From NCBI GenBank assembly GCA_910583745.1, contig CAJTZC010000007.1:1163-65162 (forward strand): a DNA stretch of 64,000 nt, in the 5' to 3' direction. The stretch comes from an uncultured Bacilli bacterium. GTDB lineage: Bacteria > Bacillota_I > Bacilli_A > RF39 > UBA660. This document shows positions 11,047-64,000 of the stretch, one piece after another. Numbering within the stretch: the stretch's first letter is position 1; the number at the start of each line of letters is the position of its first letter. Below the pieces are notes generated by a model. It saw only the letters and a program-made list of their open reading frames with translations. It did no database searches and had not been told where the DNA came from. A program made the translations under genes and the position numbers.

Positions 11047-11934
11047 TTATTCACCGTCCACGTCTATGTCGATGATTTCGAGAATTCTAGCGAGGTCTTC
11101 GTCGCTGTCAAACGGTATCGTGACTTTTTTTGCTGAGATGGTGACTCTCGTTCCAATTTTTTCACGCATGGCATTCTCATATATCGAATAGATTCTATTT
11201 AAAGGTACTACTCTCGTTATTTTATGTTTTTTGGCAATTTCCGTGCCTTTGGAGATAACTTCTAACTCGCGGACACTCATCCCGTTGTTCACGATGCGGT
11301 ATGCGAGCGCTGTCACGTAGTCTGGGTCTTCCATCTTGGATAAGATTTTGGCATGAGCCATACTTATCTTTTTCTCTGAGACGAGCCTTTTCACTTCTTC
11401 TGGAAGGTTGACTAGACCTAACACGTTCGTGATGTAGCTTCTACTCTTACTCACTTTTTTAGCCAGTTCTTCCTGTGTGATAGAAGTTCTTTTTATCATG
11501 TTTGAATAGGCTTCGGCTTCTTCGATAGGGTTTAAATCTTCTCTTTGAATGTTCTCTAAAAGAGCGACTTCCATCATCTCTTCATCGGTAAAGTCTCTTA
11601 CGATGGCAGGAATTTCTGTGTAACCGGCCAGTTTTGCAGCTTTGGTTCTTCTTTCTCCTGCGACGAGTTCATAGCCTTTGATGCTCTTTTTGACAATGAT
11701 TGGCTGAAAGAGCCCGTGTTCTTTTATCGACTCGGATAATTCTTGTAATTTTTCTTCGTCAAAAACAATTCTCGGCTGAAAGGGATTGCTCCTTATCTCG
11801 CTTATCGGTATGTTTTTAATATCTTTCTCGGTGGCCGAATCGATTATCTCTTTTTCGACACTGTCGAAGTTGATGTTTTCACTGTTGAAAAGTTGTTCTA
11901 GTCCTATGCCTAGAGCTTTTCTTTTAGTTTCCAT
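11047..11934 (-). CDS. parB: chromosome partitioning protein ParB/Spo0J (parS-type)
   Basis: 295-aa protein with the GERRTKAAKLAG arginine patch and an HTH (TQEELAKKVSKSRSYITNVL). The specificity positions recalled from the ParB/Noc literature read R, V, N, A rather than Noc-type Q, K, K, R. It overlaps parA. Confidence 0.85.
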   Translation of the reverse strand: METKRKALGIGLEQLFNSENINFDSVEKEIIDSATEKDIKNIPISEIRSNPFQPRIVFDEEKLQELSESIKEHGLFQPIIVKKSIKGYELVAGERRTKAAKLAGYTEIPAIVRDFTDEEMMEVALLENIQREDLNPIEEAEAYSNMIKRTSITQEELAKKVSKSRSYITNVLGLVNLPEEVKRLVSEKKISMAHAKILSKMEDPDYVTALAYRIVNNGMSVRELEVISKGTEIAKKHKITRVVPLNRIYSIYENAMREKIGTRVTISAKKVTIPFDSDEDLARILEIIDIDVDGE

Positions 11935-12709
11935 CTCTTTCGATTACCTCCTTTGCTAGATTTAAGTATGCTTCAGTGGCTCTACAAAGTGGGTCATATT
12001 CGCATATCGGTTTGCCGTGGCTCGGAGCTTCCACGAGTCGTACCAATCTCGGTATTATCGTATTGAATACTTTGTCTCCGAAGAACTTTCTCACCTGTTC
12101 GACAACTTCTAAGCCCAGATTTGTTCGCGAGTCGAGCAAGGTCAAAAGCACGCCTTCGATGGTAAGATTCGGGTTCAATTTTGTCTGTGTCATGATGATT
12201 GTATTGAGAAGTTGGGCGACTCCTTCGAGAGCAAAGAATTCGCATTGTACTGGAATTAAAACTGAGTTGCTCGCGACGAGGGCATTTAGTGTGTTCAAAC
12301 CCAAAGATGGTGGACAATCGATGATGATGTAGTCGAAATTTTCTTGCACTTTGACGATGGCATTTTTGAGCTGCTCGTTTTTCTTAAATTCTGGGTCTTT
12401 GTATTCCATTTGTATCAATTCTGTGCTGAGACCTGCTAGATTTATCGTCGCCGGCAAAATGAAAAGATTTTTAAACTTGGTCCTTATAATCGCATCGGTG
12501 ATTTCACATTTTCCCGTCAGGACATCGTATGCACTCGCTTGAATCGTTCCCTTGTTAATCCCGAGGCCCGTCGATGCATTTCCCTGTTGGTCTAAGTCGA
12601 TGAGTAAAACCTTTTTGCCGAGTTTTCCTAAAGATGCAGCTAGATTGATACTCGTCGTCGTTTTTCCTACGCCGCCTTTTTGATTAACTAAAGAAATAAT
12701 TTTTGCCAT
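11924..12709 (-). CDS. parA: chromosome partitioning ATPase ParA/Soj
   Basis: Deviant Walker A KGGVGKTT. The probable start is MAKIISLVNQ. The upstream M of the track ORF at 12727 is less likely. Confidence 0.88.
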   Translation of the reverse strand: MAKIISLVNQKGGVGKTTTSINLAASLGKLGKKVLLIDLDQQGNASTGLGINKGTIQASAYDVLTGKCEITDAIIRTKFKNLFILPATINLAGLSTELIQMEYKDPEFKKNEQLKNAIVKVQENFDYIIIDCPPSLGLNTLNALVASNSVLIPVQCEFFALEGVAQLLNTIIMTQTKLNPNLTIEGVLLTLLDSRTNLGLEVVEQVRKFFGDKVFNTIIPRLVRLVEAPSHGKPICEYDPLCRATEAYLNLAKEVIERDGN

Positions 12710-12867
12710 CTCATACCACACCTTCATTAATGTTATTTCTTAAATATTTTACCATATTTATTTTTAGAAGTACATAAGCTTTTCACTAAAATATAAATAT
12801 AAACTGAATAGCCAATCGATTTCATTTTTATTCGTGGTGGTCTTTTTCTATTTTCGGTTTGTGAAGA

Positions 12868-14780: not shown

Positions 14781-16099
14781 AATTTTCCTTTCTTTGTGTA
14801 CTTAAGTATTATATCATACTTTTGTCCTTTTTCATTATTAAATTTGCTTTTTCGTAAACCTGGAAGCCAAATTATACGGTCTTGAGAGTCTACTAAGATG
14901 GGATAGTCTTCTCTTTGGGACGGAGAAACTTTCTCGTCGATGAAGATATCGCTTATCTTTTTGGTACCAGACATATTTTTTATCGCCACGCGGTCTGTCG
15001 ATTTTCGTGTCCTCACATATAGGGGTAATTCTAAATCTTCAGAATTTAATCTCGTCGTGTAGTTCGATGTGTCGTCCTCGTCCTCGACGATTTCGATGGT
15101 ATCGCCATTCGGAAGGATTGTAATCGGTTCGAGTTTTATGCGGTATTTTTTTGTCGCGGTGGGTCTCTCTATTTTTAGGATGTCGTATTCCCTTAGGGCT
15201 TTGTATCCGAGAGGCAGGTCTAAGGAGAAGTTTTTGTCTTTTTGGATATTTTCTCGTATCGATTCGATGTGGAAAACTTTTAAGTTATCCACAGCATCTC
15301 CATAAATCTTTTTCAACAGGTGCTCCACTATTTTTTTTTGCATGTAATTTTCTTCTTTTTGGAAAAGTGTCAAATCGATTTGATTCGGTTCCTTCAAACA
15401 CCTTATACATGCCTGCTCGACTTGGCTCTCTATAAAGTTCGATGCTTCTTCTATCTCTTCTGAATATTTTAAGAACTTTAAATGTGCCTCTCTATTTTCT
15501 TCTTTTAAAAAGGGGAGCATGCGATGCCTGAATCTGTTTCTCGTGTAGTCGTCTTGTAAGTTTGTCGCATCGAGAACGAACGGAATCTCGTTTTCTTTTA
15601 CATACTCTTCGATTTCTTCTTTTGTATAGAAGATGAGGGGTTTTGCAAAGATAAGTTTTTTTTCTCTATAACACTTTGTAAATCCGGCATAACCCTTTAA
15701 ATAGGAACCTCGCGTCAATCGCATCAGTATGGTCTCCATCAAATCGTCGCAATGATGTGCGGTCATGATATAAGGAGTATCGTATTTTTGAGCGAGCTCC
15801 TTATAAAATGTATATCTTTTCTCTCGGTAGTATGATTCGCTTTGCTTTTGCTTTTTTTCGAGCTCCAATCCTTCAAAAATGATACCTCTTTCTTCGCAGT
15901 ATTGTTTCATAAAGAGGTATTCATCGGCACTCTCTTTTCGTATGTTGTGGTTTACATGTGCACAAATTATTCGATAGTTGTGTCTACATAGAAGGTCTAA
16001 GAGGCACATGGAATCTGGTCCACCCGAACAGCCCAAGATGATGCATTTTTGGCCAATTTGCAATTGTTCTAGGAATTTTATACTTTTGTCCATTCGCAT
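14777..16099 (-). CDS. tilS: tRNA(Ile)-lysidine synthetase
   Basis: 440-aa protein with the PP-loop motif SGGPDS. It lies immediately upstream of ftsH as in Bacillus, but no hpt gene sits between them. Confidence 0.88.
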   Translation of the reverse strand: MRMDKSIKFLEQLQIGQKCIILGCSGGPDSMCLLDLLCRHNYRIICAHVNHNIRKESADEYLFMKQYCEERGIIFEGLELEKKQKQSESYYREKRYTFYKELAQKYDTPYIMTAHHCDDLMETILMRLTRGSYLKGYAGFTKCYREKKLIFAKPLIFYTKEEIEEYVKENEIPFVLDATNLQDDYTRNRFRHRMLPFLKEENREAHLKFLKYSEEIEEASNFIESQVEQACIRCLKEPNQIDLTLFQKEENYMQKKIVEHLLKKIYGDAVDNLKVFHIESIRENIQKDKNFSLDLPLGYKALREYDILKIERPTATKKYRIKLEPITILPNGDTIEIVEDEDDTSNYTTRLNSEDLELPLYVRTRKSTDRVAIKNMSGTKKISDIFIDEKVSPSQREDYPILVDSQDRIIWLPGLRKSKFNNEKGQKYDIILKYTKKGKF

Positions 16100-36356: not shown

Positions 36357-36569
36357 TTAAATAAAAGTAATTTCAACATCTTTGCTGATAAGTTCTGAAT
36401 AACTAAAACTTCGTATTGAGTCTGCAAGTTCCACGGTAAATATTTGTGGATAAATTTCTTTAAGCGTTCCAATGAATTTATCTGTTTTATTACGCATTCC
36501 ATAAACTTTTACCATCACTCTCTCGCCCTTATGTGGTAAGAGATTTTCTCTTATTACAAGTGGATTCAT
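36357..36569 (-). CDS. veg: Veg protein (DUF1021)
   Basis: 70-aa protein aligning with B. subtilis Veg (...YPQIFTVELADS..SFSYSELISKDVEITF). It lies downstream of yabG as in Bacillus. Confidence 0.8.
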   Translation of the reverse strand: MNPLVIRENLLPHKGERVMVKVYGMRNKTDKFIGTLKEIYPQIFTVELADSIRSFSYSELISKDVEITFI

Positions 36570-50177: not shown

Positions 50178-51707
50178 TTATTGTTCTTTTTGAATTCTCT
50201 CAAATAAAGGTTTTGGAGAATCGGTCACTTGGTAAGTTTGATTTTCTATAAATTTAGCCTCTTCAAATCTCGTGTTTTGGCTATTTAGGTATTTTTCTAC
50301 TTTTGCAGTGCTTTCAGGCATGAAAGGTTTGAGTAGAATGTTTGTTACTCTTATCGCCTCAAGTAAATTATATAATACGGTTTCCAATCGGTCTTTTTTT
50401 GTTTCGTCTTTTGCCAAAGTCCAAGGCGTCGTATCATCGATATATTTGTTGCTTGCACGAAGTACGTCAAAAATGGATTCTAGTACTTTCGAAACTTGCA
50501 ATTCTTCTATCTTGGCGTCTGTATCTTTTTTCAGATTGTCTATCGCTTCTATGAATGGAGTATCGATTTCTTCTGTTGTATGTGGGTTTGTAATGTTTCC
50601 ATTGAAATACTTGTTTGCCATTCCAATCGTTCTATTCACTAAATTACCCCATACATTGGCGAGGTCACTGTTTATTCTGGCTATTAAAGCATCTTCAGAG
50701 AAGTTTCCGTCTGAACCGAATGGAATTTCTCTCAAGGAAAAGTATCTTACAGCATCTGCACTATATAAATCGATGTATTCGCGTGGATCTTTGTAGTTTC
50801 CGACACTTTTTGCAATTTTCGCTCCATCGATGACCAACCAACCGTGGCCGAACACTTTTTTTGGAAGTGGTAAGTCTAGGGCCATTAGGATAATTGGCCA
50901 AATAATCGTATGAAATCTCACTATTTCTTTGCCGACGATGTGCACGTCTGCAGGCCAGAATTTTTTGAACAGCGTTTCGTCGTCCGAATTATATCCTAGA
51001 GCTGTGATGTAGTTGCTCAATGCGTCGAGCCAAACGTATACGACGTGCTTTTCATCAAACGTTACGGGGATACCCCATGAGAAACTCGTTCTAGAGACGC
51101 ATAAGTCTTCCAAACCAGGTTTTAAGAAATTATTGACCATCTCGTTTTTGCGCGATTCGGGCTGAATAAACTCTGGATGAGCTTCGATGTACTCTTCCAA
51201 ACGTTTTTGGTATTTAGATAGTCTTAGGAAATAGGCTTCTTCGCTTACTTCTTGTACCTCTCTATGGCAGTCTGGACAGTTTCCATCGACGAGTTGTGAC
51301 TCCGTCCAAAATGACTCGCATGGTGTACAGTATTTTCCTCTGTACTCTCCTTTGTAGATATCTCCTTGATCGTACAACTGTTTAAAAATCTTTTGGACTG
51401 CATCGACGTGATCTTCATCCGTGGTTCTTATGAAACGGTCATAGGTTATTCCAAGTTTTTTCCACAAATCTTTGGCATTATCGACGATTTTATCGATATA
51501 TTCCTTAGGTTCAAGACCTGCCTCAGAAGCCTTTTTTTCTATCTTTTGTCCGTGTTCATCGCTTCCTGTCAAGAAGTATGTGTCGAATCCATCTAGTTTT
51601 TTGTATCTAGCGAGTGAATCCGCGATTATCGTACTATAACAGTGGCCTATGTGAAAGTTGGCGGAAGGATAATAAATCGGTGTCGTAATATAAAATTTTT
51701 TTTCCAT
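50178..51707 (-). CDS. metG: methionyl-tRNA synthetase (short form without the C-terminal tRNA-binding extension)
   Basis: It carries the HIGH motif YPSANFHIGHCYS, Zn knuckle Cys residues and KMSKS-equivalent KIAKSVGN. The probable start is MEKKFYITTPIYY at ~51707, preceded by AAAGAGGAA. The track ORF extends 45 codons upstream through the leader. Confidence 0.88.
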   Translation of the reverse strand: MEKKFYITTPIYYPSANFHIGHCYSTIIADSLARYKKLDGFDTYFLTGSDEHGQKIEKKASEAGLEPKEYIDKIVDNAKDLWKKLGITYDRFIRTTDEDHVDAVQKIFKQLYDQGDIYKGEYRGKYCTPCESFWTESQLVDGNCPDCHREVQEVSEEAYFLRLSKYQKRLEEYIEAHPEFIQPESRKNEMVNNFLKPGLEDLCVSRTSFSWGIPVTFDEKHVVYVWLDALSNYITALGYNSDDETLFKKFWPADVHIVGKEIVRFHTIIWPIILMALDLPLPKKVFGHGWLVIDGAKIAKSVGNYKDPREYIDLYSADAVRYFSLREIPFGSDGNFSEDALIARINSDLANVWGNLVNRTIGMANKYFNGNITNPHTTEEIDTPFIEAIDNLKKDTDAKIEELQVSKVLESIFDVLRASNKYIDDTTPWTLAKDETKKDRLETVLYNLLEAIRVTNILLKPFMPESTAKVEKYLNSQNTRFEEAKFIENQTYQVTDSPKPLFERIQKEQ

Positions 51708-51711
51708 AAAA

Positions 51712-51945
51712 TGTTCCTCTTTTCTATATAAAAAAACATGAACTAAAGGACGAATATAAAATCCGCGGTACCACCTTAATTCATGTTTTATCATGCACTT
51801 TAACTTTTTAACGCGAGTTAGACGTTTGGACTCCAAAGCCATGTTCGGCGATTTTCATTATCGTCTTCCACCAACCGACGACTCTCTATAAAATCCGAGC
51901 GCTTACTCTCTTCTTCTCTGTCCAATGTGTATTAAATATATCACA
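51712..51945 (-). promoter_or_regulatory. T-box riboswitch leader of metG
   Basis: The minus-strand sense contains AAUUAAGGUGGUACCGCGG, the conserved T-box antiterminator sequence. It is followed by a terminator hairpin (AAACAUGAAUUAAGG...CCUUUAGUUCAUGUUUUUUU) just upstream of the metG RBS. A GAACAUGGC segment is a candidate Met (AUG) specifier. Confidence 0.75.
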
Positions 51946-52519: not shown

Positions 52520-55500
52520 CTAGTTTATCTGTTCAATAATTGCATTTAAAAGTTCAAATAGATAGTAAATATAATTCTTTTTTAATAGAGATGTCACGAG
52601 GGTGATGGATATTTCCTTGTTTTTATAACTTATTTCAAATTTAGGACAGATACTGTAGCTCTGCAGGAAGAGTTTCTCCCCGTCTATCTTGTTCGATACT
52701 TCTTCTGGAAGTACGACTGTCACTTTGTTTTGAAGTTGGAGCAATTTTTTAACTCCTAATCTATCGAGGAAGCCTTCTACACACTTTTTGAGCATGTATA
52801 TCTCTAGCTCTTCATCAATTTTACCAAAACGATCTTCGAGCTCCGCTTTGACATTTTGGAAGTCCGTTCTGTCGTTTATTGTGTTTATCATTTTGTGAAT
52901 TTCAATTTTAATGTTCTCATCGCTGACATAGTCGTTTGATATGTATGTACTCGCATGGAGAGATGGGCCTGTTTCTTCTTTGTTTTCGATTTCGTCGCCC
53001 GACAAGCGTTTGACTTCTTCATCGACCATCTTTGTATACAAATCTAAACCCACGGCATCGATGAAACCAGCTTGTTCGCTTCCCAAGAAATCTCCTGCTC
53101 CTCTTATAGCGAGGTCTCTCATAGCGATTTTGTATCCACTTCCCAATTCTGTAAACTCTTTTATCGAGTCGAGACGTCTCATGGCTGTTTCAGTGAGCAC
53201 CTTCGCAGGGTTGTACATTAAATAGGCGTATGCAATCTTATCGCTTCTTCCGACTCGGCCTCTTATCTGATAAAGTTGACTTAGTCCAAATTTATCGGAG
53301 TCGATGATTATAATCGTATTAACGTTCGGAATGTCGATTCCTGTCTCTATAATCGTCGTACAAATTAGTATGTCGTAGTCGCCTTTTATAAATGATTCCA
53401 TGATGTTCCCAAGTTCTTCGGAAGACATCTGTCCGTGACCACATATTATATTGGCCTCTGGTATTAGCTTTTGCAATTTGTTTTTGAAACGCTCCAATTC
53501 GTTTATGGAATTTATCAAAATGAACGTTTGTCCGTTTCGAGTAAGTTCTTTATATATGGCATCTCTCATGATGAGGTCGTTTTCTTCTATAACGTAAGTT
53601 TGTATCGGATAGCGGTTAATTGGAGGCGTATCTAAGACGGAGAGGCTTCTCAGTCCACTCATTGCCATTTTGAGCGTTCTCGGAATCGGTGTTGCCGATA
53701 AGGTTAAAACGTTGACGTCGTTTTTGATTTTTTTAATCTTTTCTTTATGAGTGACACCGAAACGCTGTTCTTCGTCGATGACGAGTAAGCCTAATTTTTT
53801 GTATTCGATTTGGTCGTTTAACAATTTGTGTGTTCCTATGATGATATCGATTTTTCCTTCTCTCAATTCATTCAGTATTCTCGTGACATTTTTTTGAGAA
53901 ACGTAGCGGTTTAAGAGTGCAATCTTTATTGGAAAATCTTTAAATCTTTCGAGAGCACTCGTATATTGTTGCTTAGAAAGAATCGTCGTCGGGCATAAGT
54001 ACGCGACTTGGTATCCATTTATCACAGCTTTAAACATAGCTCGAAAGGCGACTTCTGTCTTTCCGTATCCTACATCTCCGCAAAGCAGTCTATCCATCGG
54101 AGCGGTCTGTTTTAGGTCAGCATCGATTTCTTTGATTGTTTTTTCTTGGTCTCTCGTTAGGGCATAAGGGAAATCTAAGGCAAATTTTATTTCTTCTTCA
54201 TAATCTTTATAGGCAGGACCTTGAATTTTGTTTCGGCTCGAGTAGAGTTCGATTAATTCGCCCGAGATGTCTCGTATTTTTTTTCTGGTTTCGTTTTTCT
54301 TTTTTGCCCAAGCTGCACTGTTCAATTTACTCAGTTTTATCGAAGTTCCTGGGTTAGAAGCGTATTTGTAAAGTTTGTCTATACCGTCAATTGGTACATA
54401 TACCTTGTCATTTCCTTGATATTCTAATTCTATGTAATCGCGTGTATAGCCACCGCTCGTCAGGGTCTTTAAACCTCTATAAATACCTATTCCGTGCGCT
54501 TCGTGTACAATGTAATCTCCTTGTGTCAAGTCACTGAATGATTTTATTTTTCTACCTATTTTTATCGAATTTCTGTACTTTATCTCTTTTTTTATCGTCT
54601 TGTCTATATCGTTTGGCGTTATTAAAACATATTTATCGAAGATAAATCCTTTATAAAGCTTCTTCTCAATGATGTTTATTTTTCCTATGAATAATTTCTC
54701 TTCATTTGTGAGGTATGTCTCTTCGAAGAGTTCTTGTATCGTGTGTATTTGATTTTGTGTCTCTAAGGCGAAGATAATCGTATTCTTTTTTAGTTCTTTT
54801 AAGCAGAAGGCTTTTAAGTCTTGCATATTGGAGTTGAAATTATCTACAGATTTCGAGCTATATGCGAGGGCATTTTTATCGTTGTAGGCGTTTATCGTAT
54901 CGACTTTATATGTCTTTGCAGGGTTCATTTTCTCGTACTCGAACATATAATCGGTGTTTGGGTCGATTTCTTTACTCGTCTTGTACTCAAAAATATCTTT
55001 TTGGAGGTTGATATACGAATTCTTTATTTGCGACTCGTCTATCAAGAATAGCGTTTGGTTTCCAAGGTAGTCTAACAACGAATTTGGTGTATCAGAGATG
55101 CTCTCATTGAATTTTCTCAATTCTGCTTTGTCTAGGACTTTGGTCGACCTCTGTGTCTCTTCGTCGAACTCTTTGATGGACTCGATTTCTTCGTCAAAGA
55201 ATTCTATTCGTATTGGTTTTATAGCATCTACTGGAAAAATATCTATGATATACCCCCGAACAGCATATTCTCCTGTTACTGTTACCAGTGAGTCTCTCTT
55301 GTATCCAAACTCTTCTAATTTGGTCAAAATTATTTCCCGGGAAATAATTTGGGAGGAGGGGTCTATTATTAAGCTCTGCTCTTCCTCTAAATTCGGCAGG
55401 TATTTTAAATAACCCATCAAAGATGTGACCACTATGTGTTTCTTTTTATTTTTCTTGAGCTGTTCTAGGGTTTCTAAACGCTTCATTTTTAAATCGGGAG

Positions 55501-61325: not shown

Positions 61326-61748
61326 TTATCGTTTGTCTTTAAAAAATGTCTGTATATCTTTCATGTATTTCTCTTTTTCTGGCCCTTCAAATACTACTGT
61401 TTCAAAATTAGAACATTTGTATTGTTTTTTATAAGTATAGCGGGGCACTAAATAGTAAATATTTTTTAAGCGAGCCTCCTTTATAACGGCCTTACACATA
61501 TCACATGGCTCAAGAGTAATAAGCATACATTTGTTCTGTAAGTTCCATTCTTTTAATTTGCGATTCGCTTTTTCTATGGCTATGATTTCAGCGTGGTCAG
61601 TTGTTTTTTTACTTGCATTTCTTTTGTTATATCCACAGCTAATAATTCCGCTTTCATCAAATATTATCGCACTTACAGGGAACTCATCATTTTGTAGGGA
61701 TTTTTCAGCTAATTTGAATAGTTTTTTCCACAGTTTGTTTTCTATCAT
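61326..61748 (-). CDS. tadA: tRNA-specific adenosine deaminase
   Basis: It carries CDA-fold motifs HAEIIAIE and PCDMCKAVI. The probable start is MIENKLWKK at ~61748, preceded by GGAGG. The track ORF begins 8 codons upstream. Confidence 0.88.
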   Translation of the reverse strand: MIENKLWKKLFKLAEKSLQNDEFPVSAIIFDESGIISCGYNKRNASKKTTDHAEIIAIEKANRKLKEWNLQNKCMLITLEPCDMCKAVIKEARLKNIYYLVPRYTYKKQYKCSNFETVVFEGPEKEKYMKDIQTFFKDKR

Positions 61749-61761
61749 AGTATTCCTCCAA

Positions 61762-61855
61762 AATAAAAGCACACACGAAGTCTCATCTTATGGCTGCTAT
61801 TTTCCAATCCTGACCAGGTTCGACAATTGTTCGTTGTGCGTTATAAGTATATCAC
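61762..61855 (-). ncRNA. ffs: signal recognition particle RNA (small 4.5S/ffs-type, domain IV hairpin)
   Basis: The minus-strand sense ...CCUGGUCAGGAUUGGAAAAUAGCAGCCAUAAGAUGAGAC...GUGUGUGC matches the conserved E. coli 4.5S core CCAGGUCAGGUCCGGAAGGAAGCAGCCAAGGCAGAUGAC...GUGUGC, including the GGAA tetraloop. A U-run lies at the 3' end, directly before the tadA RBS. Confidence 0.7.
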
Positions 61856-61904
61856 ATAGAATAGGGGAATACAACCCAAAGTTTTCCACAGTTATTTTTT
61901 GAAA

Positions 61905-61922
61905 TTATTTCCCGGGAAATAA
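61905..61922. promoter_or_regulatory. NBS-type site B1
   Basis: TTATTTCCCGGGAAATAA, within the 24-bp perfect palindrome AAATTATTTCCCGGGAAATAATTT. Confidence 0.8.
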
Positions 61923-61961
61923 TTTAGACAAAAAATGCAATTTGGCAAAATGGGTTTTCTG

Positions 61962-61979
61962 ATGTTCCACGTGGAACAT
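61962..61979. promoter_or_regulatory. parS-type site A1
   Basis: ATGTTCCACGTGGAACAT (contains TGTTCCACGTGGAACA). Confidence 0.8.
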
Positions 61980-62050
61980 TTAAATCTACAATTTAATACT
62001 AAAGTATTTTATCTTTGAATCAATCATTTAAAATAGGCGATTTTATTGCT

Positions 62051-62068
62051 ATGTTCCACGTGGAACAT
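62051..62068. promoter_or_regulatory. parS-type site A2
   Basis: ATGTTCCACGTGGAACAT, within the 22-bp palindrome CTATG...CATAG. Confidence 0.8.
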
Positions 62069-62130
62069 AGATAGTATATATACATGTTAAGAAGCATTTT
62101 TTAAAAATATGGCACTAAATATATGGAATT

Positions 62131-62148
62131 TTATTTCCCAGGAAATAA
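62131..62148. promoter_or_regulatory. NBS-type site B2 (imperfect)
   Basis: TTATTTCCCAGGAAATAA; one central position deviates (CCCAGG for CCCGGG). Confidence 0.6.
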
Positions 62149-62222
62149 AATTGGCTGCACTATAGCAAAAACAATCTTTTAAAACTCACTAATAATGCGA
62201 TTTCGATAACAAGTGTGCAGTA

Positions 62223-62240
62223 ATGTTCCACGTGGAACAT
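62223..62240. promoter_or_regulatory. parS-type site A3
   Basis: ATGTTCCACGTGGAACAT, followed 3 nt later by TGTGGATAA. Confidence 0.8.
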
Positions 62241-62243
62241 TAC

Positions 62244-62252
62244 TGTGGATAA
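62244..62252 (-). promoter_or_regulatory. DnaA box 1 (perfect TTATCCACA on minus strand)
   Basis: TGTGGATAA on the plus strand. Confidence 0.6.
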
Positions 62253-62295
62253 AAAAAGATTTTTTAAATAATAATCACTAAATATGACCTCAAAA

Positions 62296-62313
62296 TTATT
62301 TCCCGGGAAATAA
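62296..62313. promoter_or_regulatory. NBS-type site B3
   Basis: TTATTTCCCGGGAAATAA. Confidence 0.8.
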
Positions 62314-62352
62314 TTGTTCTTTTTTCGCGTTATTGAAGTATGCAATATTACA

Positions 62353-62370
62353 ATGTTCCACGTGGAACAT
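62353..62370. promoter_or_regulatory. parS-type site A4
   Basis: ATGTTCCACGTGGAACAT, followed by TGTGGAAAA (a one-mismatch DnaA box). Confidence 0.8.
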
Positions 62371-62449
62371 TGTGGAAAAGTCGAAAAATTTAACATTTTT
62401 CAAACAATACATAATAAATTAAATACAAAACAGTATTTTTTACAGTTAA

Positions 62450-62467
62450 ATGTTTCACGTGAAACAT
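62450..62467. promoter_or_regulatory. parS-type site A5 (exact consensus)
   Basis: ATGTTTCACGTGAAACAT contains TGTTTCACGTGAAACA. Confidence 0.85.
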
Positions 62468-62567
62468 ATAATAGGCAAGAATCTAAGCGTTTTTATAAAA
62501 ATCTAATTTAATTGTACAATCGAAAAGCAAATCACTCTTCATTAAACAGTTTAACCAGGTTATAACA

Positions 62568-62585
62568 ATGTTTCACGTGGAACAT
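62568..62585. promoter_or_regulatory. parS-type site A6
   Basis: ATGTTTCACGTGGAACAT (hybrid half-sites). Confidence 0.8.
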
Positions 62586-62588
62586 TGT

Positions 62589-62597
62589 TGTGGATAA
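62589..62597 (-). promoter_or_regulatory. DnaA box 2 (perfect)
   Basis: TGTGGATAA, 3 nt after site A6. Confidence 0.6.
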
Positions 62598-62644
62598 AAA
62601 AAGATTTTTTAAATAATAATCAATCACTAAATATGACCTCAAAA

Positions 62645-62662
62645 TTATTTCCCGGGAAATAA
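62645..62662. promoter_or_regulatory. NBS-type site B4
   Basis: TTATTTCCCGGGAAATAA. Confidence 0.8.
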
Positions 62663-62701
62663 TTGTTCTTTTTTCACGTTATTGAAGTATGCAATATTAC
62701 A

Positions 62702-62719
62702 ATGTTCCACGTGAAACAT
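62702..62719. promoter_or_regulatory. parS-type site A7 (identical to the B. subtilis spo0J parS)
   Basis: ATGTTCCACGTGAAACAT contains TGTTCCACGTGAAACA. Confidence 0.85.
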
Positions 62720-62722
62720 TGC

Positions 62723-62731
62723 TGTGGATAA
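62723..62731 (-). promoter_or_regulatory. DnaA box 3 (perfect)
   Basis: TGTGGATAA, 3 nt after site A7. Confidence 0.6.
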
Positions 62732-62771
62732 CTTAATTTGGATTCTTAAATAAATCATTTTTGTAATAATT

Positions 62772-62789
62772 TTATTTCCCGGGAAATAA
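62772..62789. promoter_or_regulatory. NBS-type site B5
   Basis: TTATTTCCCGGGAAATAA, within the 22-bp palindrome TTTTATTTCCCGGGAAATAAAA. Confidence 0.8.
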
Positions 62790-62826
62790 AACAGGATAAT
62801 ATATGGAATTAATTTTGTAATTTGGA

Positions 62827-62844
62827 ATGTTCCACGTGGAACAT
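62827..62844. promoter_or_regulatory. parS-type site A8
   Basis: ATGTTCCACGTGGAACAT. Confidence 0.8.
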
Positions 62845-62883
62845 CAGAAAACTCATTTTGCCAAATTGCAATTTCTGTCCAAA

Positions 62884-62901
62884 TTATTTCCCGGGAAATA
62901 A
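62884..62901. promoter_or_regulatory. NBS-type site B6
   Basis: TTATTTCCCGGGAAATAA, within the 24-bp palindrome AAATTATTTCCCGGGAAATAATTT. Confidence 0.8.
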
Positions 62902-62921
62902 TTTCAAAATAAAAAATGGCT

Positions 62922-64000
62922 TTATTCGCCATTTTCTTCTATTTTTGGAACGTTTTCCACAGTTTGTTCTTCTAAAGGTGTCGTTTCTTCAGTCTCAGCA
63001 GCTTCTTCAGAATCTTTTTCAACAACACTTATCGATGATACCCATTGATTTTCTTTAAGGTTGATTAGTCTAACACCTTGAGCATTTCTGCCCAATTGAG
63101 AAATCGAAGTGGTTTCTAGTCTTATTACCATACCCGAATCGGTTATGATTACGATGTCTTTGTTGTCATCCACAATTTTAAATGAAGCGATATTTCCGTT
63201 CTTTTCAGTAACGTTCAATGCTTTAACACCTTTGCTGCCACGACGGGTCTCTCTAAATTCACGAACAAATGTTCGTTTTCCGTAACCTTTCTCTGTAACG
63301 ATGAGGATATTTGTATCCAAGTCACATACTTCTGCACAGATACATTCTCCATCAGGCATCGTTATTCCACGGACTCCTGAAGCGGTTCTACCCATGATGC
63401 GAACTTCCGATTCGTCGAACAATACTGCACGACCATTCGATGAGCCTAACATAATTTTGTTTTCACCATTCGTCTTTTTGACTTCTATCAATTCATCATT
63501 CTCTTTAAGTGTTATACATAGTTTACCATTTTGACGAATGTTAGCAAATTCGTCAATACTTGTACGCTTTACAACACCTTTTTTAGTGGCAAATAGAAGG
63601 AATTTCGCTGCATCTTCGTTGCTTACCTTGATGATTGAGTTTACAAGCTCATCTTTTTCAATCTGTAAAAGGTTTATGATTGGTAATCCTTTATGCTGTC
63701 TAGCAAATTCTGGTATTTCGTAACCCTTTATACGGTATACTTTACCTTTATTTGTAAAGAATAGTATGTAATCATGTGTAGATACATTTACCATCAGCTT
63801 AACGTTGTCTTCTTCGTTGGTTGACATTCCTTTGATGCCTACACCTCCGCGATTCTGTGTTTTATAGGTGTTTGCTGCGACACGTTTGATATAACCCTTG
63901 TCAGTTAATGTAATGATGCTGTTTTCTTCTGGTATCAAGGATTCATCTTCTATGAAGTCTACTGCTGTCATATCAATTTTAGTACGACGTTCATCTCCAT
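62922..64000 (-). CDS. gyrA: DNA gyrase subunit A, C-terminal domain (partial; gene continues beyond the right window edge)
   Basis: It shows the beta-pinwheel repeat pattern typical of the GyrA CTD (ITLTDKGYIKRV..., VKLMVNVSTHDYILFFTNKGKVYRIKGYEIPE, QGVRLINLKENQWV) and an acidic tail. The track ORF M at 63971 is internal. Confidence 0.85.
   Translation of the reverse strand, partial: GDERRTKIDMTAVDFIEDESLIPEENSIITLTDKGYIKRVAANTYKTQNRGGVGIKGMSTNEEDNVKLMVNVSTHDYILFFTNKGKVYRIKGYEIPEFARQHKGLPIINLLQIEKDELVNSIIKVSNEDAAKFLLFATKKGVVKRTSIDEFANIRQNGKLCITLKENDELIEVKKTNGENKIMLGSSNGRAVLFDESEVRIMGRTASGVRGITMPDGECICAEVCDLDTNILIVTEKGYGKRTFVREFRETRRGSKGVKALNVTEKNGNIASFKIVDDNKDIVIITDSGMVIRLETTSISQLGRNAQGVRLINLKENQWVSSISVVEKDSEEAAETEETTPLEEQTVENVPKIEENGE

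Follow-up and report, generated by a model that had tools for sequence, protein, structure and literature searches.

Candidate DnaA boxes beside parS sites in an origin-proximal gyrA-tadA array of uncultured gut Bacilli

A 64,000-nucleotide (nt) stretch of the genome of an uncultured Bacilli bacterium, here called the window, carries between gyrA and tadA a non-coding array of about 1.1 kb (61892 to 62914) in which sequences matching binding sites of the replication initiator DnaA stand directly beside parS, the loading site of the segregation protein ParB. The array holds eight parS sites, six palindromes of the Noc-binding site (NBS) type, and DnaA boxes. Sequence comparison leads us to think that the TGTGGATAA elements of the array are probably genuine DnaA boxes, kept by selection beside ParB loading sites in a combined centromere and DnaA-box cluster. 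Many related species have the arrangement too, and this recurrence points to a hard-wired link of replication start with chromosome segregation. How replication initiation, segregation, and division are coordinated is a long-standing question, and the known links (Soj with DnaA, the synergy of Spo0J with DnaA-box clusters [DBCs], DnaA at parS in Caulobacter, and Noc in Staphylococcus aureus) are mostly genetic and mechanistically vague. Here, an initiator site has come to lie, time and again and in a fixed polarity, 0 to 4 bp from a ParB loading site and, in relatives, also 3 to 4 bp from a Noc site. That initiator sites occur at a centromere is already known; new here are that the juxtaposition is fixed and near zero, that the boxes are iterated through an array of parS and NBS, and that the pattern recurs across a whole lineage of uncultured gut Bacilli, which keeps a dense array of parS, with or without NBS, at one locus, gyrA-tadA.

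TGTGGATAA, the complement of the perfect DnaA box TTATCCACA, occurs three times in the array, at 62244 to 62252, 62589 to 62597, and 62723 to 62731, and TGTGGAAAA, a one-mismatch box that reads TTTTCCACA on the other strand, occurs at 62371 to 62379. All four boxes lie on the minus strand, and all four abut parS, as had been predicted from the sequence of the window. The perfect boxes are each 4 nt from a parS site, namely the third (62224 to 62239), the sixth (62569 to 62584), and the seventh (62703 to 62718), and the one-mismatch box is 1 nt from the fourth (62354 to 62369). Thus, the parS-adjacent boxes include three exact matches to the TTATCCACA-class consensus and one with a single mismatch. 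The original prediction put every box exactly 3 nt after parS, which is right for the three perfect boxes when the distance is measured from the 18-mer ATGTT..AACAT rather than from the 16-mer (3 versus 4 nt), but wrong for the box at 62371, which follows the 16-mer by 1 nt. The boxes at 62244 and 62589 are not independent, because they sit in the two copies of one direct duplication on the plus strand (62207 to 62372 and 62552 to 62721, families D5/D6). The duplicated segment includes a parS-box junction, an NBS, and a parS; its copies are spaced 345 to 349 nt apart (a unit of about 347 nt) and are 83% identical in their first part and 98% identical in their second. The boxes at 62371 and 62723 lie just beyond the end of the duplicated segment, and their spacers differ (AACATTGTGGAAAA versus AACATTGCTGTGGATAA), so they represent separate junctions. 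Elsewhere in the window, an inverted DnaA-box pair is found in the tilS coding region at 15268 to 15293, with TTTTCCACA on the minus strand and a perfect TTATCCACA on the plus strand 8 nt apart, and a further perfect box lies at 36445.

The boxes are too many to be explained by chance. Five perfect boxes were found in the 64-kb window, three of them in the array, against 0.49 expected from dinucleotide shuffles. The probability of at least two perfect boxes in 500 bp was 7e-6, and that of at least two perfect boxes within 6 nt of one of eight parS sites was 3.7e-7. The box frequency within the window is therefore too low to account for the array boxes, in keeping with the earlier proposal that they are more than a chance occurrence. 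In the arrays of relatives, 49 of 66 boxes lay within 6 nt of parS, and box density was 1.36 per kb in arrays, compared with 0.26 per kb in the background and 7.66 per kb at oriC.

The palindromes that accompany the boxes are of two kinds. The parS 16-mer TGTTNCACGTGNAACA has eight exact sites in the array, against 0.14 expected in the whole window. The sites are palindromic and origin proximal, and parA and parB are encoded in the window. Besides the four parS sites with boxes given above, four have none: the first (61963 to 61978; TGTTCCACGTGGAACA), the second (62052 to 62067), the fifth (62451 to 62466; TGTTTCACGTGAAACA), and the eighth (62828 to 62843). The second kind of palindrome, ATTTCCCGGGAAAT, matches the NBS consensus and occurs six times, five times exactly (61907 to 61920, 62298 to 62311, 62647 to 62660, 62774 to 62787, and 62886 to 62899) and once with a single mismatch (ATTTCCCAGGAAAT, 62133 to 62146). 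Counting sites with at most one mismatch, the window has seven NBS-type sites, against 0.02 expected. In each half-site, an A at position 1 and a C at position 6 set NBS apart from parS (PMC7383237). We note that a perfect NBS copy is also found at 55332 to 55345, inside the mfd coding region, and that relatives have NBS at the equivalent position 6 to 7 kb past gyrA; this NBS is therefore conserved at the DNA level inside a gene.

Proteins that could read these sites are encoded within the roughly 83 kb of sequence of this organism that we covered (the window and a second contig, L209). The window encodes a parS-type ParB (11047 to 11934, minus strand) that has the KSR motif and parS-type helix-turn-helix residues, has B. 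subtilis Spo0J as its best solved relative (6sdk, 198 bits), and is presumed to be the reader of the parS sites. A parA/soj-like ATPase gene lies upstream of parB (11924 to 12727, minus strand). L209 belongs to the same species (its DnaA is 100% identical) and covers the other side of the origin, in the order rpmH-rnpA-yidC-jag-...-mnmE-mnmG-rsmG followed by a ParB-family gene; dnaA is thus encoded on it, as is a ParB paralogue of 392 amino acids (aa) next to rsmG and left of oriC (L209:1130-2308, minus strand). The paralogue matches solved Noc structures best (194 bits versus 169 for Spo0J). Specificity of Noc resides in Q173, K179 or K184, and R201 (PMC7383237), and the helix-turn-helix of the paralogue carries SQ...K...R, corresponding to Q173, K179, and R201. 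Its NCBIfam Noc score of 298 bits is slightly below the cutoff of 315, it lacks the first ~25 residues of solved Noc chains, where the membrane-targeting helix lies, and it ends in a low-complexity C-terminal tail of ~190 aa. Judged by these features, the paralogue may not be a membrane-tethering Noc. Neither the NBS identity of the second palindrome nor the Noc-type paralogue was part of the original prediction. As the NBS-specific bases A1 and C6 are present and both ParB and a Noc-type paralogue are encoded, we conclude that the array is an interleaved array of ParB and Noc-type sites.

The strongest computational argument for DnaA, rather than ParB or another factor, as the likely reader of the boxes is the match of their variants to those of oriC. 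In this species, the rpmH-dnaA spacer on L209 has three TTATCCACA, two TTATCAACA, and one TTTTCCACA, and the dnaA-dnaN spacer has one TTATCCACA, such that the species' own oriC has four perfect boxes and the array has three. In the dnaA-flanking intergenic regions of 58 species, TTATCCACA was enriched 43-fold and TTATCAACA 19-fold over the rest of the loci. The commonest oriC variants in these species are TTATCCACA, TTATCAACA, and TTATTCACA, and the same variants occur beside parS. The oriC of L080 has no TTATCCACA and seven TTATCAACA, and TTATCAACA is also found beside two of its parS sites. Moreover, in L212 and L118 the boxes at successive parS sites have drifted among CTATCCACA, TTGTCCACA, TTATTCACA, ATATCCACA, and TTATACACA, all of which are oriC-enriched variants. 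A strict one-to-one match between the preferred oriC variant and the parS-side variant of each species was ruled out; what is shared is a repertoire.

The juxtaposition is conserved in related genomes. A GyrA-homology scan, limited to one genome per species, gave 80 loci, all from metagenome-assembled genomes (MAGs) of uncultured gut Bacilli or "Tenericutes," with GyrA C-terminal identities of 61 to 82%, and a parS array directly followed gyrA in nearly all 80. Offsets were then counted on 700 outward parS flanks from 79 species chosen by GyrA homology alone. TGTGGATAA or TGTTGATAA started at offsets 1 to 4 outside parS in 41 cases, from 24 of the 79 species, when 0.43 were predicted from offsets 8 to 35. 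The opposite polarity was found at these offsets in six cases, so the ACA end nearly always faces parS. None of the 52 box-bearing parS sites had a box on both sides, and in all 14 genomes with at least two composites, all boxes were on one and the same side. The boxes are thus one-sided, which speaks against an extended symmetric ParB site, and we rule out such a site on this ground. An association of the box with NBS rather than parS was likewise ruled out, as no DnaA box lay closer than 15 nt to an NBS in the 81 genome loci compared. On a rough neighbor-joining tree of GyrA, used solely to count clades, the composite was present in at least five clades and filled one of them almost completely. 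In the clade of L059, L023, L072, and L073, box and parS are retained although the flanks are no longer recognizably similar. In the clade of the window, every box is on the gyrA/oriC-proximal side; in other clades, it is on the distal side.

Closer relatives were found by a DnaA search. In L212 (DnaA 91% identical), five of eight parS sites have a box at gap 0; in L216 (86%), three of four have one, at gaps 1, 0, and 0; and L214 (89%) has one TTTTCCACA at gap 1, with the same TTTTCCACA-A-parS junction as at 62371 in the window. Seven of eight parS sites have a box at gap 1 in L118, and five of nine have one at gaps 7 to 8 in L121. The arrays of L215, L217, and L218 had no parS-adjacent box. 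Among genomes with an identical TadA protein, L007 retains the TTATCCACA-GTAA-parS junction, and L005, the array of which cannot be aligned to that of the window, has a box-like element at three of three parS sites, on the same side and at gaps of 5 to 6 nt. A third, the strain L006, differs at the parS beside the conserved box (L006:54-85), which is altered symmetrically at both ends (AGTTCCACGTGGAACT), such that the palindrome is kept and the consensus is broken. The juxtaposition therefore recurs in relatives with unalignable surroundings, and the box cannot be dismissed as merely a part of the duplicated unit without conservation in relatives. We note that short-read assemblies of this species (L002 to L008 and L209 to L211) repeatedly break off within the array or at its edge, so that the locus is often missing or truncated in MAGs and calls of absence are biased.

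A second scan, with the pattern parS-N{0,30}-TGTGGATAA, also gave 80 loci. As the pattern demanded a box within 30 nt of parS, the scan offers no baseline, no enrichment figure, and no test of generality across bacteria. It returned low-GC arrays beside gyrA, tadA, or dnaX with gap-1 composites, L118 among them. Moreover, it returned a 44-bp tripartite module, TGTTTCACGTGAAACA-T-TGTGGATAA-AATT-ATTTCCCGGGAAAT, in which a DnaA box stands between a ParB site and a Noc-type site. The module is limited to a few metagenomic relatives, L093, L101 (e.g., L101:209-253), L126, and L147, which have a GC content of 0.19 to 0.25 and arrays downstream of gyrA. There are three to five copies per array in L093, L101, and L147, and L126 has one copy with a perfect box and one with the TTATTCACA variant. 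In unrelated taxa with a GC content of 0.4 to 0.69 (L096, L100, L103, L120, L138, L141, L148, L166, and others), parS is embedded in a cluster of DnaA boxes, one of them 7 to 12 nt away; in L138, a perfect box stands 12 nt from parS on each side. Such closeness of parS to DnaA boxes may be a widespread feature.

Other explanations of the boxes were considered. That they are functionless chance occurrences multiplied by internal duplication is almost certainly wrong: two of the three perfect boxes (62244 and 62589) are indeed copies of one duplicated unit, but the probability is about 4e-7 even when just two independent junctions are counted, the 62371 and 62723 junctions lie outside the duplicated segment, and the same architecture is found in 24 of 79 species, as well as in strains whose arrays cannot be aligned, a recurrence that effectively refutes it. 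A reader other than DnaA is unlikely. The element could be an asymmetric extension of the ParB site, such as a third, degenerate half-site, or the DnaA-box-like site of an unknown factor. TGTGGATAA and the parS half-site GTGGAACA have GTGGA..A in common, and 96% of sites have T as the first base outside parS, which shows that a ParB-related constraint does reach slightly beyond the 16-mer. The commonest neighbor, TGTTGATAA, is nevertheless unlike the half-site, the set of variants beside parS is the set enriched at oriC, the element never occurs on both sides of a parS that is itself symmetric, and a distance range of 0 to 8 nt would be intolerable for a single ParB-DNA interface.

The remaining alternatives keep DnaA as the reader and treat parS differently. 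It is improbable that the boxes are DnaA operators for the signal recognition particle (SRP) RNA, tadA, and dnaX or for transcripts internal to the array, with parS close by incidentally. At several B. subtilis DBCs, DnaA is known to act as a transcription factor (PMC3245932), and another one-mismatch box (TTTTCCACA, plus strand) is found at the array edge (61882 to 61890), some 40 nt upstream of the 5' end of the SRP RNA, and is conserved across three species of the clade (L007, L212, and L214). Thus positioned, the box at 61882 may place the SRP RNA/tadA/dnaX promoter under DnaA control. The parS-adjacent boxes, however, lie 400 to 900 nt from the SRP RNA gene, promoter-like sites are no commoner in the array than in shuffles, and operators would leave the peak at offsets of 1 to 4 nt and the fixed polarity to parS unexplained. 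A promoter reading of TGGATA/TTGATA was itself ruled out, as 61700 to 63000 has 8 promoter-like sites and shuffles have 8.1. Still more improbable is that the array is part of an auxiliary origin, a third DnaA-box cluster that loops to the clusters flanking dnaA, with parS embedded in it as it is where parS lies inside oriC. The array is about 7.5 kb from dnaN, it has about as many perfect boxes as oriC (three versus four), and parS lies inside dense DnaA-box clusters in unrelated metagenomic taxa. Against this, the boxes are single and 130 to 350 bp apart, with comK, recF, gyrB, and gyrA between the array and dnaA-dnaN, while typical dense clusters are present at rpmH-dnaA and dnaA-dnaN. Sequence inspection found no convincing unwinding element or DnaA-trio run beside the boxes; a short TAATAATAA run 16 nt away is unremarkable in AT-rich DNA. 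Finally, many relatives retain the parS array without any box, and the dnaA-flanking clusters are always present, which makes an auxiliary-origin role unlikely.

Several points weigh against our preferred reading of the elements as selected DnaA boxes at ParB loading sites. The composite is patchy: 55 of 79 species lack it, as do some of the closest relatives (L009/L215, L217, and L218/L012). It therefore cannot be essential, and its function is probably modulatory. Spacing varies among species (0, 1, 2, 3, 4, and 5 to 8 nt), which argues against a single rigid DnaA-ParB complex, and since the side relative to oriC also differs among clades, one stereospecific or oriC-directed mechanism cannot account for every case. 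Moreover, TGTGGATAA partly resembles the parS half-site GTGGAACA, and an origin by half-site duplication is possible for that variant. Because arrays contain tandem duplications and the genomes share ancestry, counts of sites run too high, and the numbers of species (24 of 79, spread over at least five clades of the rough tree) are the safer figures. Finally, the evidence comes from sequence comparison in organisms that are all uncultured MAGs.

How DnaA and ParB would act at the array can be outlined. We infer that DnaA binds the array boxes, and the geometry and conservation of the junctions suggest coupled binding of DnaA and ParB. The array would have two jobs, as a ParB/parS centromere interleaved with sites of the Noc-type paralogue and as an origin-proximal DnaA-box cluster. 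Domain IV of DnaA would sit on the box, with the ACA end toward parS, next to the place where a ParB dimer loads as a cytidine triphosphate (CTP)-dependent clamp and ParA/Soj is stimulated. DnaA held at the centromere would be titrated away from oriC, as at the B. subtilis DBCs or E. coli datA. DnaA occupancy and the loading or one-sided sliding of ParB would affect each other, such that initiation potential would be tied to the state of the segregation complex; for the direction of regulation, we offer a hypothesis only. Spacing ranges from 0 to 8 nt among species, whereas side and polarity stay constant, and for this reason we favor proximity or steric effects over a rigid complex.

We speculate further that the array is a cis-encoded hub for three chromosome-cycle machines, in which DnaA is docked beside the sites where two CTP-dependent clamps load (ParB at parS and the Noc-type protein at NBS) or between them. 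This extension is tentative, and we consider it more doubtful than not. Clamp loading or sliding would directly evict DnaA, trap it, or be blocked by it, and the module of L093, L101, L126, and L147 would be the extreme form. If the array is such a hub, initiation, segregation, and nucleoid occlusion would be coupled by site-to-site contact on DNA, beyond diffusible ParA/Soj, and there would be a physical basis for the control that S. aureus Noc and B. subtilis Spo0J exert on initiation. The junctions also define a DNA substrate of 26 to 44 bp for DnaA, ParB-CTP, and Noc-CTP, on which cooperativity, mutual exclusion, or a clamp roadblock could be distinguished.

The array has well-defined borders. 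On one side lies the 3' part of gyrA (62922 to 64000, minus strand), the stop codon of which (62922) is at the array border. Directly downstream of the array is a small SRP RNA gene (61760 to 61845, minus strand; RF00169, 52.8 bits, gathering score 40), followed by a tadA-like deaminase gene (61326 to 61748, minus strand) and then dnaX. Contig L001 is identical to the window, the array included, and extends beyond the window end, with the gene order dnaA-dnaN-comK-recF-gyrB-gyrA-array-tadA-dnaX, which places the array 7.6 to 8.8 kb downstream of dnaA and about 7.5 kb from oriC/dnaN. A 100-nt inverted repeat (I1) marks the two ends of the array; each of its arms consists of an NBS, 42 nt, and a parS, and the left arm (61892 to 61991) is 90% complementary to the right arm (62815 to 62914). 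The array of L009 likewise ends in NBS-parS ... parS-NBS. The repeat could be a route to inversion of the whole array, and such inversion may be a reason why the box side relative to oriC differs among clades. An RNA element in the array was ruled out, as an Rfam scan of the window matched a T-box and the SRP RNA and nothing inside the array. The T-box leader (51743 to 51927; RF00230, 108 bits) is upstream of a tRNA-synthetase-like open reading frame (50178 to 51842). The ComK-family gene between dnaN and recF (L001:2652-3149) is kept in close relatives.

The array resembles known systems in part. The original prediction likened it to the B. subtilis DBCs and E. coli datA, and the likeness, supported in part, lies in its being an origin-proximal, non-oriC group of strong boxes, of the sort proposed to titrate or inactivate DnaA. 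Three perfect and two one-mismatch boxes are spread over 1.1 kb of the array region, at a distance of about 7.5 kb from oriC; datA, for its part, is described as having five high-affinity boxes (PMC3245932). The consensus sequences of parS, NBS, and the DnaA box in B. subtilis are the same as here. The likeness ends with the layout: DBCs and datA are tight clusters free of parS, whereas the boxes here are 130 to 350 bp apart, one to a parS, and number 0 to 7 per genome, with many relatives having one or none. In B. subtilis, deletion of DBCs and deletion of spo0J are synergistic, via Soj and DnaA (PMC3245932). As for Bacillus and Staphylococcus Noc, the array shares the NBS consensus and the species encodes, next to rsmG, a paralogue with Noc specificity residues. 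Known NBS, in contrast, are scattered over the chromosome and here they are interleaved with parS in one array, and the paralogue differs from Noc in its score below the NCBIfam cutoff, its missing N terminus, and its long tail. In S. aureus, DnaA-dependent initiation is held in check by Noc (PMC5540599).

Centromeres bound by an initiator offer the closest comparison. Caulobacter crescentus DnaA, in the account that a review gives of Mera et al. 2014, binds DnaA boxes in the parS region and thereby enables segregation (PMC6399470). As described there, the initiator sites are in the centromere region, near but outside the origin, domain IV recognizes the DnaA box as it does at the origin, and the arrangement is read as a coupling of initiation to segregation, all of which is like the array. 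Caulobacter belongs to the Alphaproteobacteria and our organisms to the uncultured Bacilli, and binding and function were shown in Caulobacter, whereas ours is a comparison of sequences. Relative to the review's description, the boxes here are 0 to 4 nt from individual parS sites with fixed polarity, are iterated in a dense parS array, and in some relatives are fused with a Noc-binding site. Direct ParB-DnaA interactions have been reported in Deinococcus radiodurans and Vibrio cholerae (PMC13438810). Moreover, rctA/parS2 on chromosome 2 of V. cholerae, as the same review presents it (PMC6399470), and cisII/cisMP of D. radiodurans, as outlined in PMC7671480, are centromeres bound by both ParB and the initiator of the replicon, with crosstalk in cis. 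The initiator is RctB in Vibrio, and the Deinococcus sites are described as direct repeats upstream of parAB on secondary replicons, where they act as origins. In contrast, the array pairs canonical parS with canonical DnaA boxes on the main chromosome, at a locus outside the origin.

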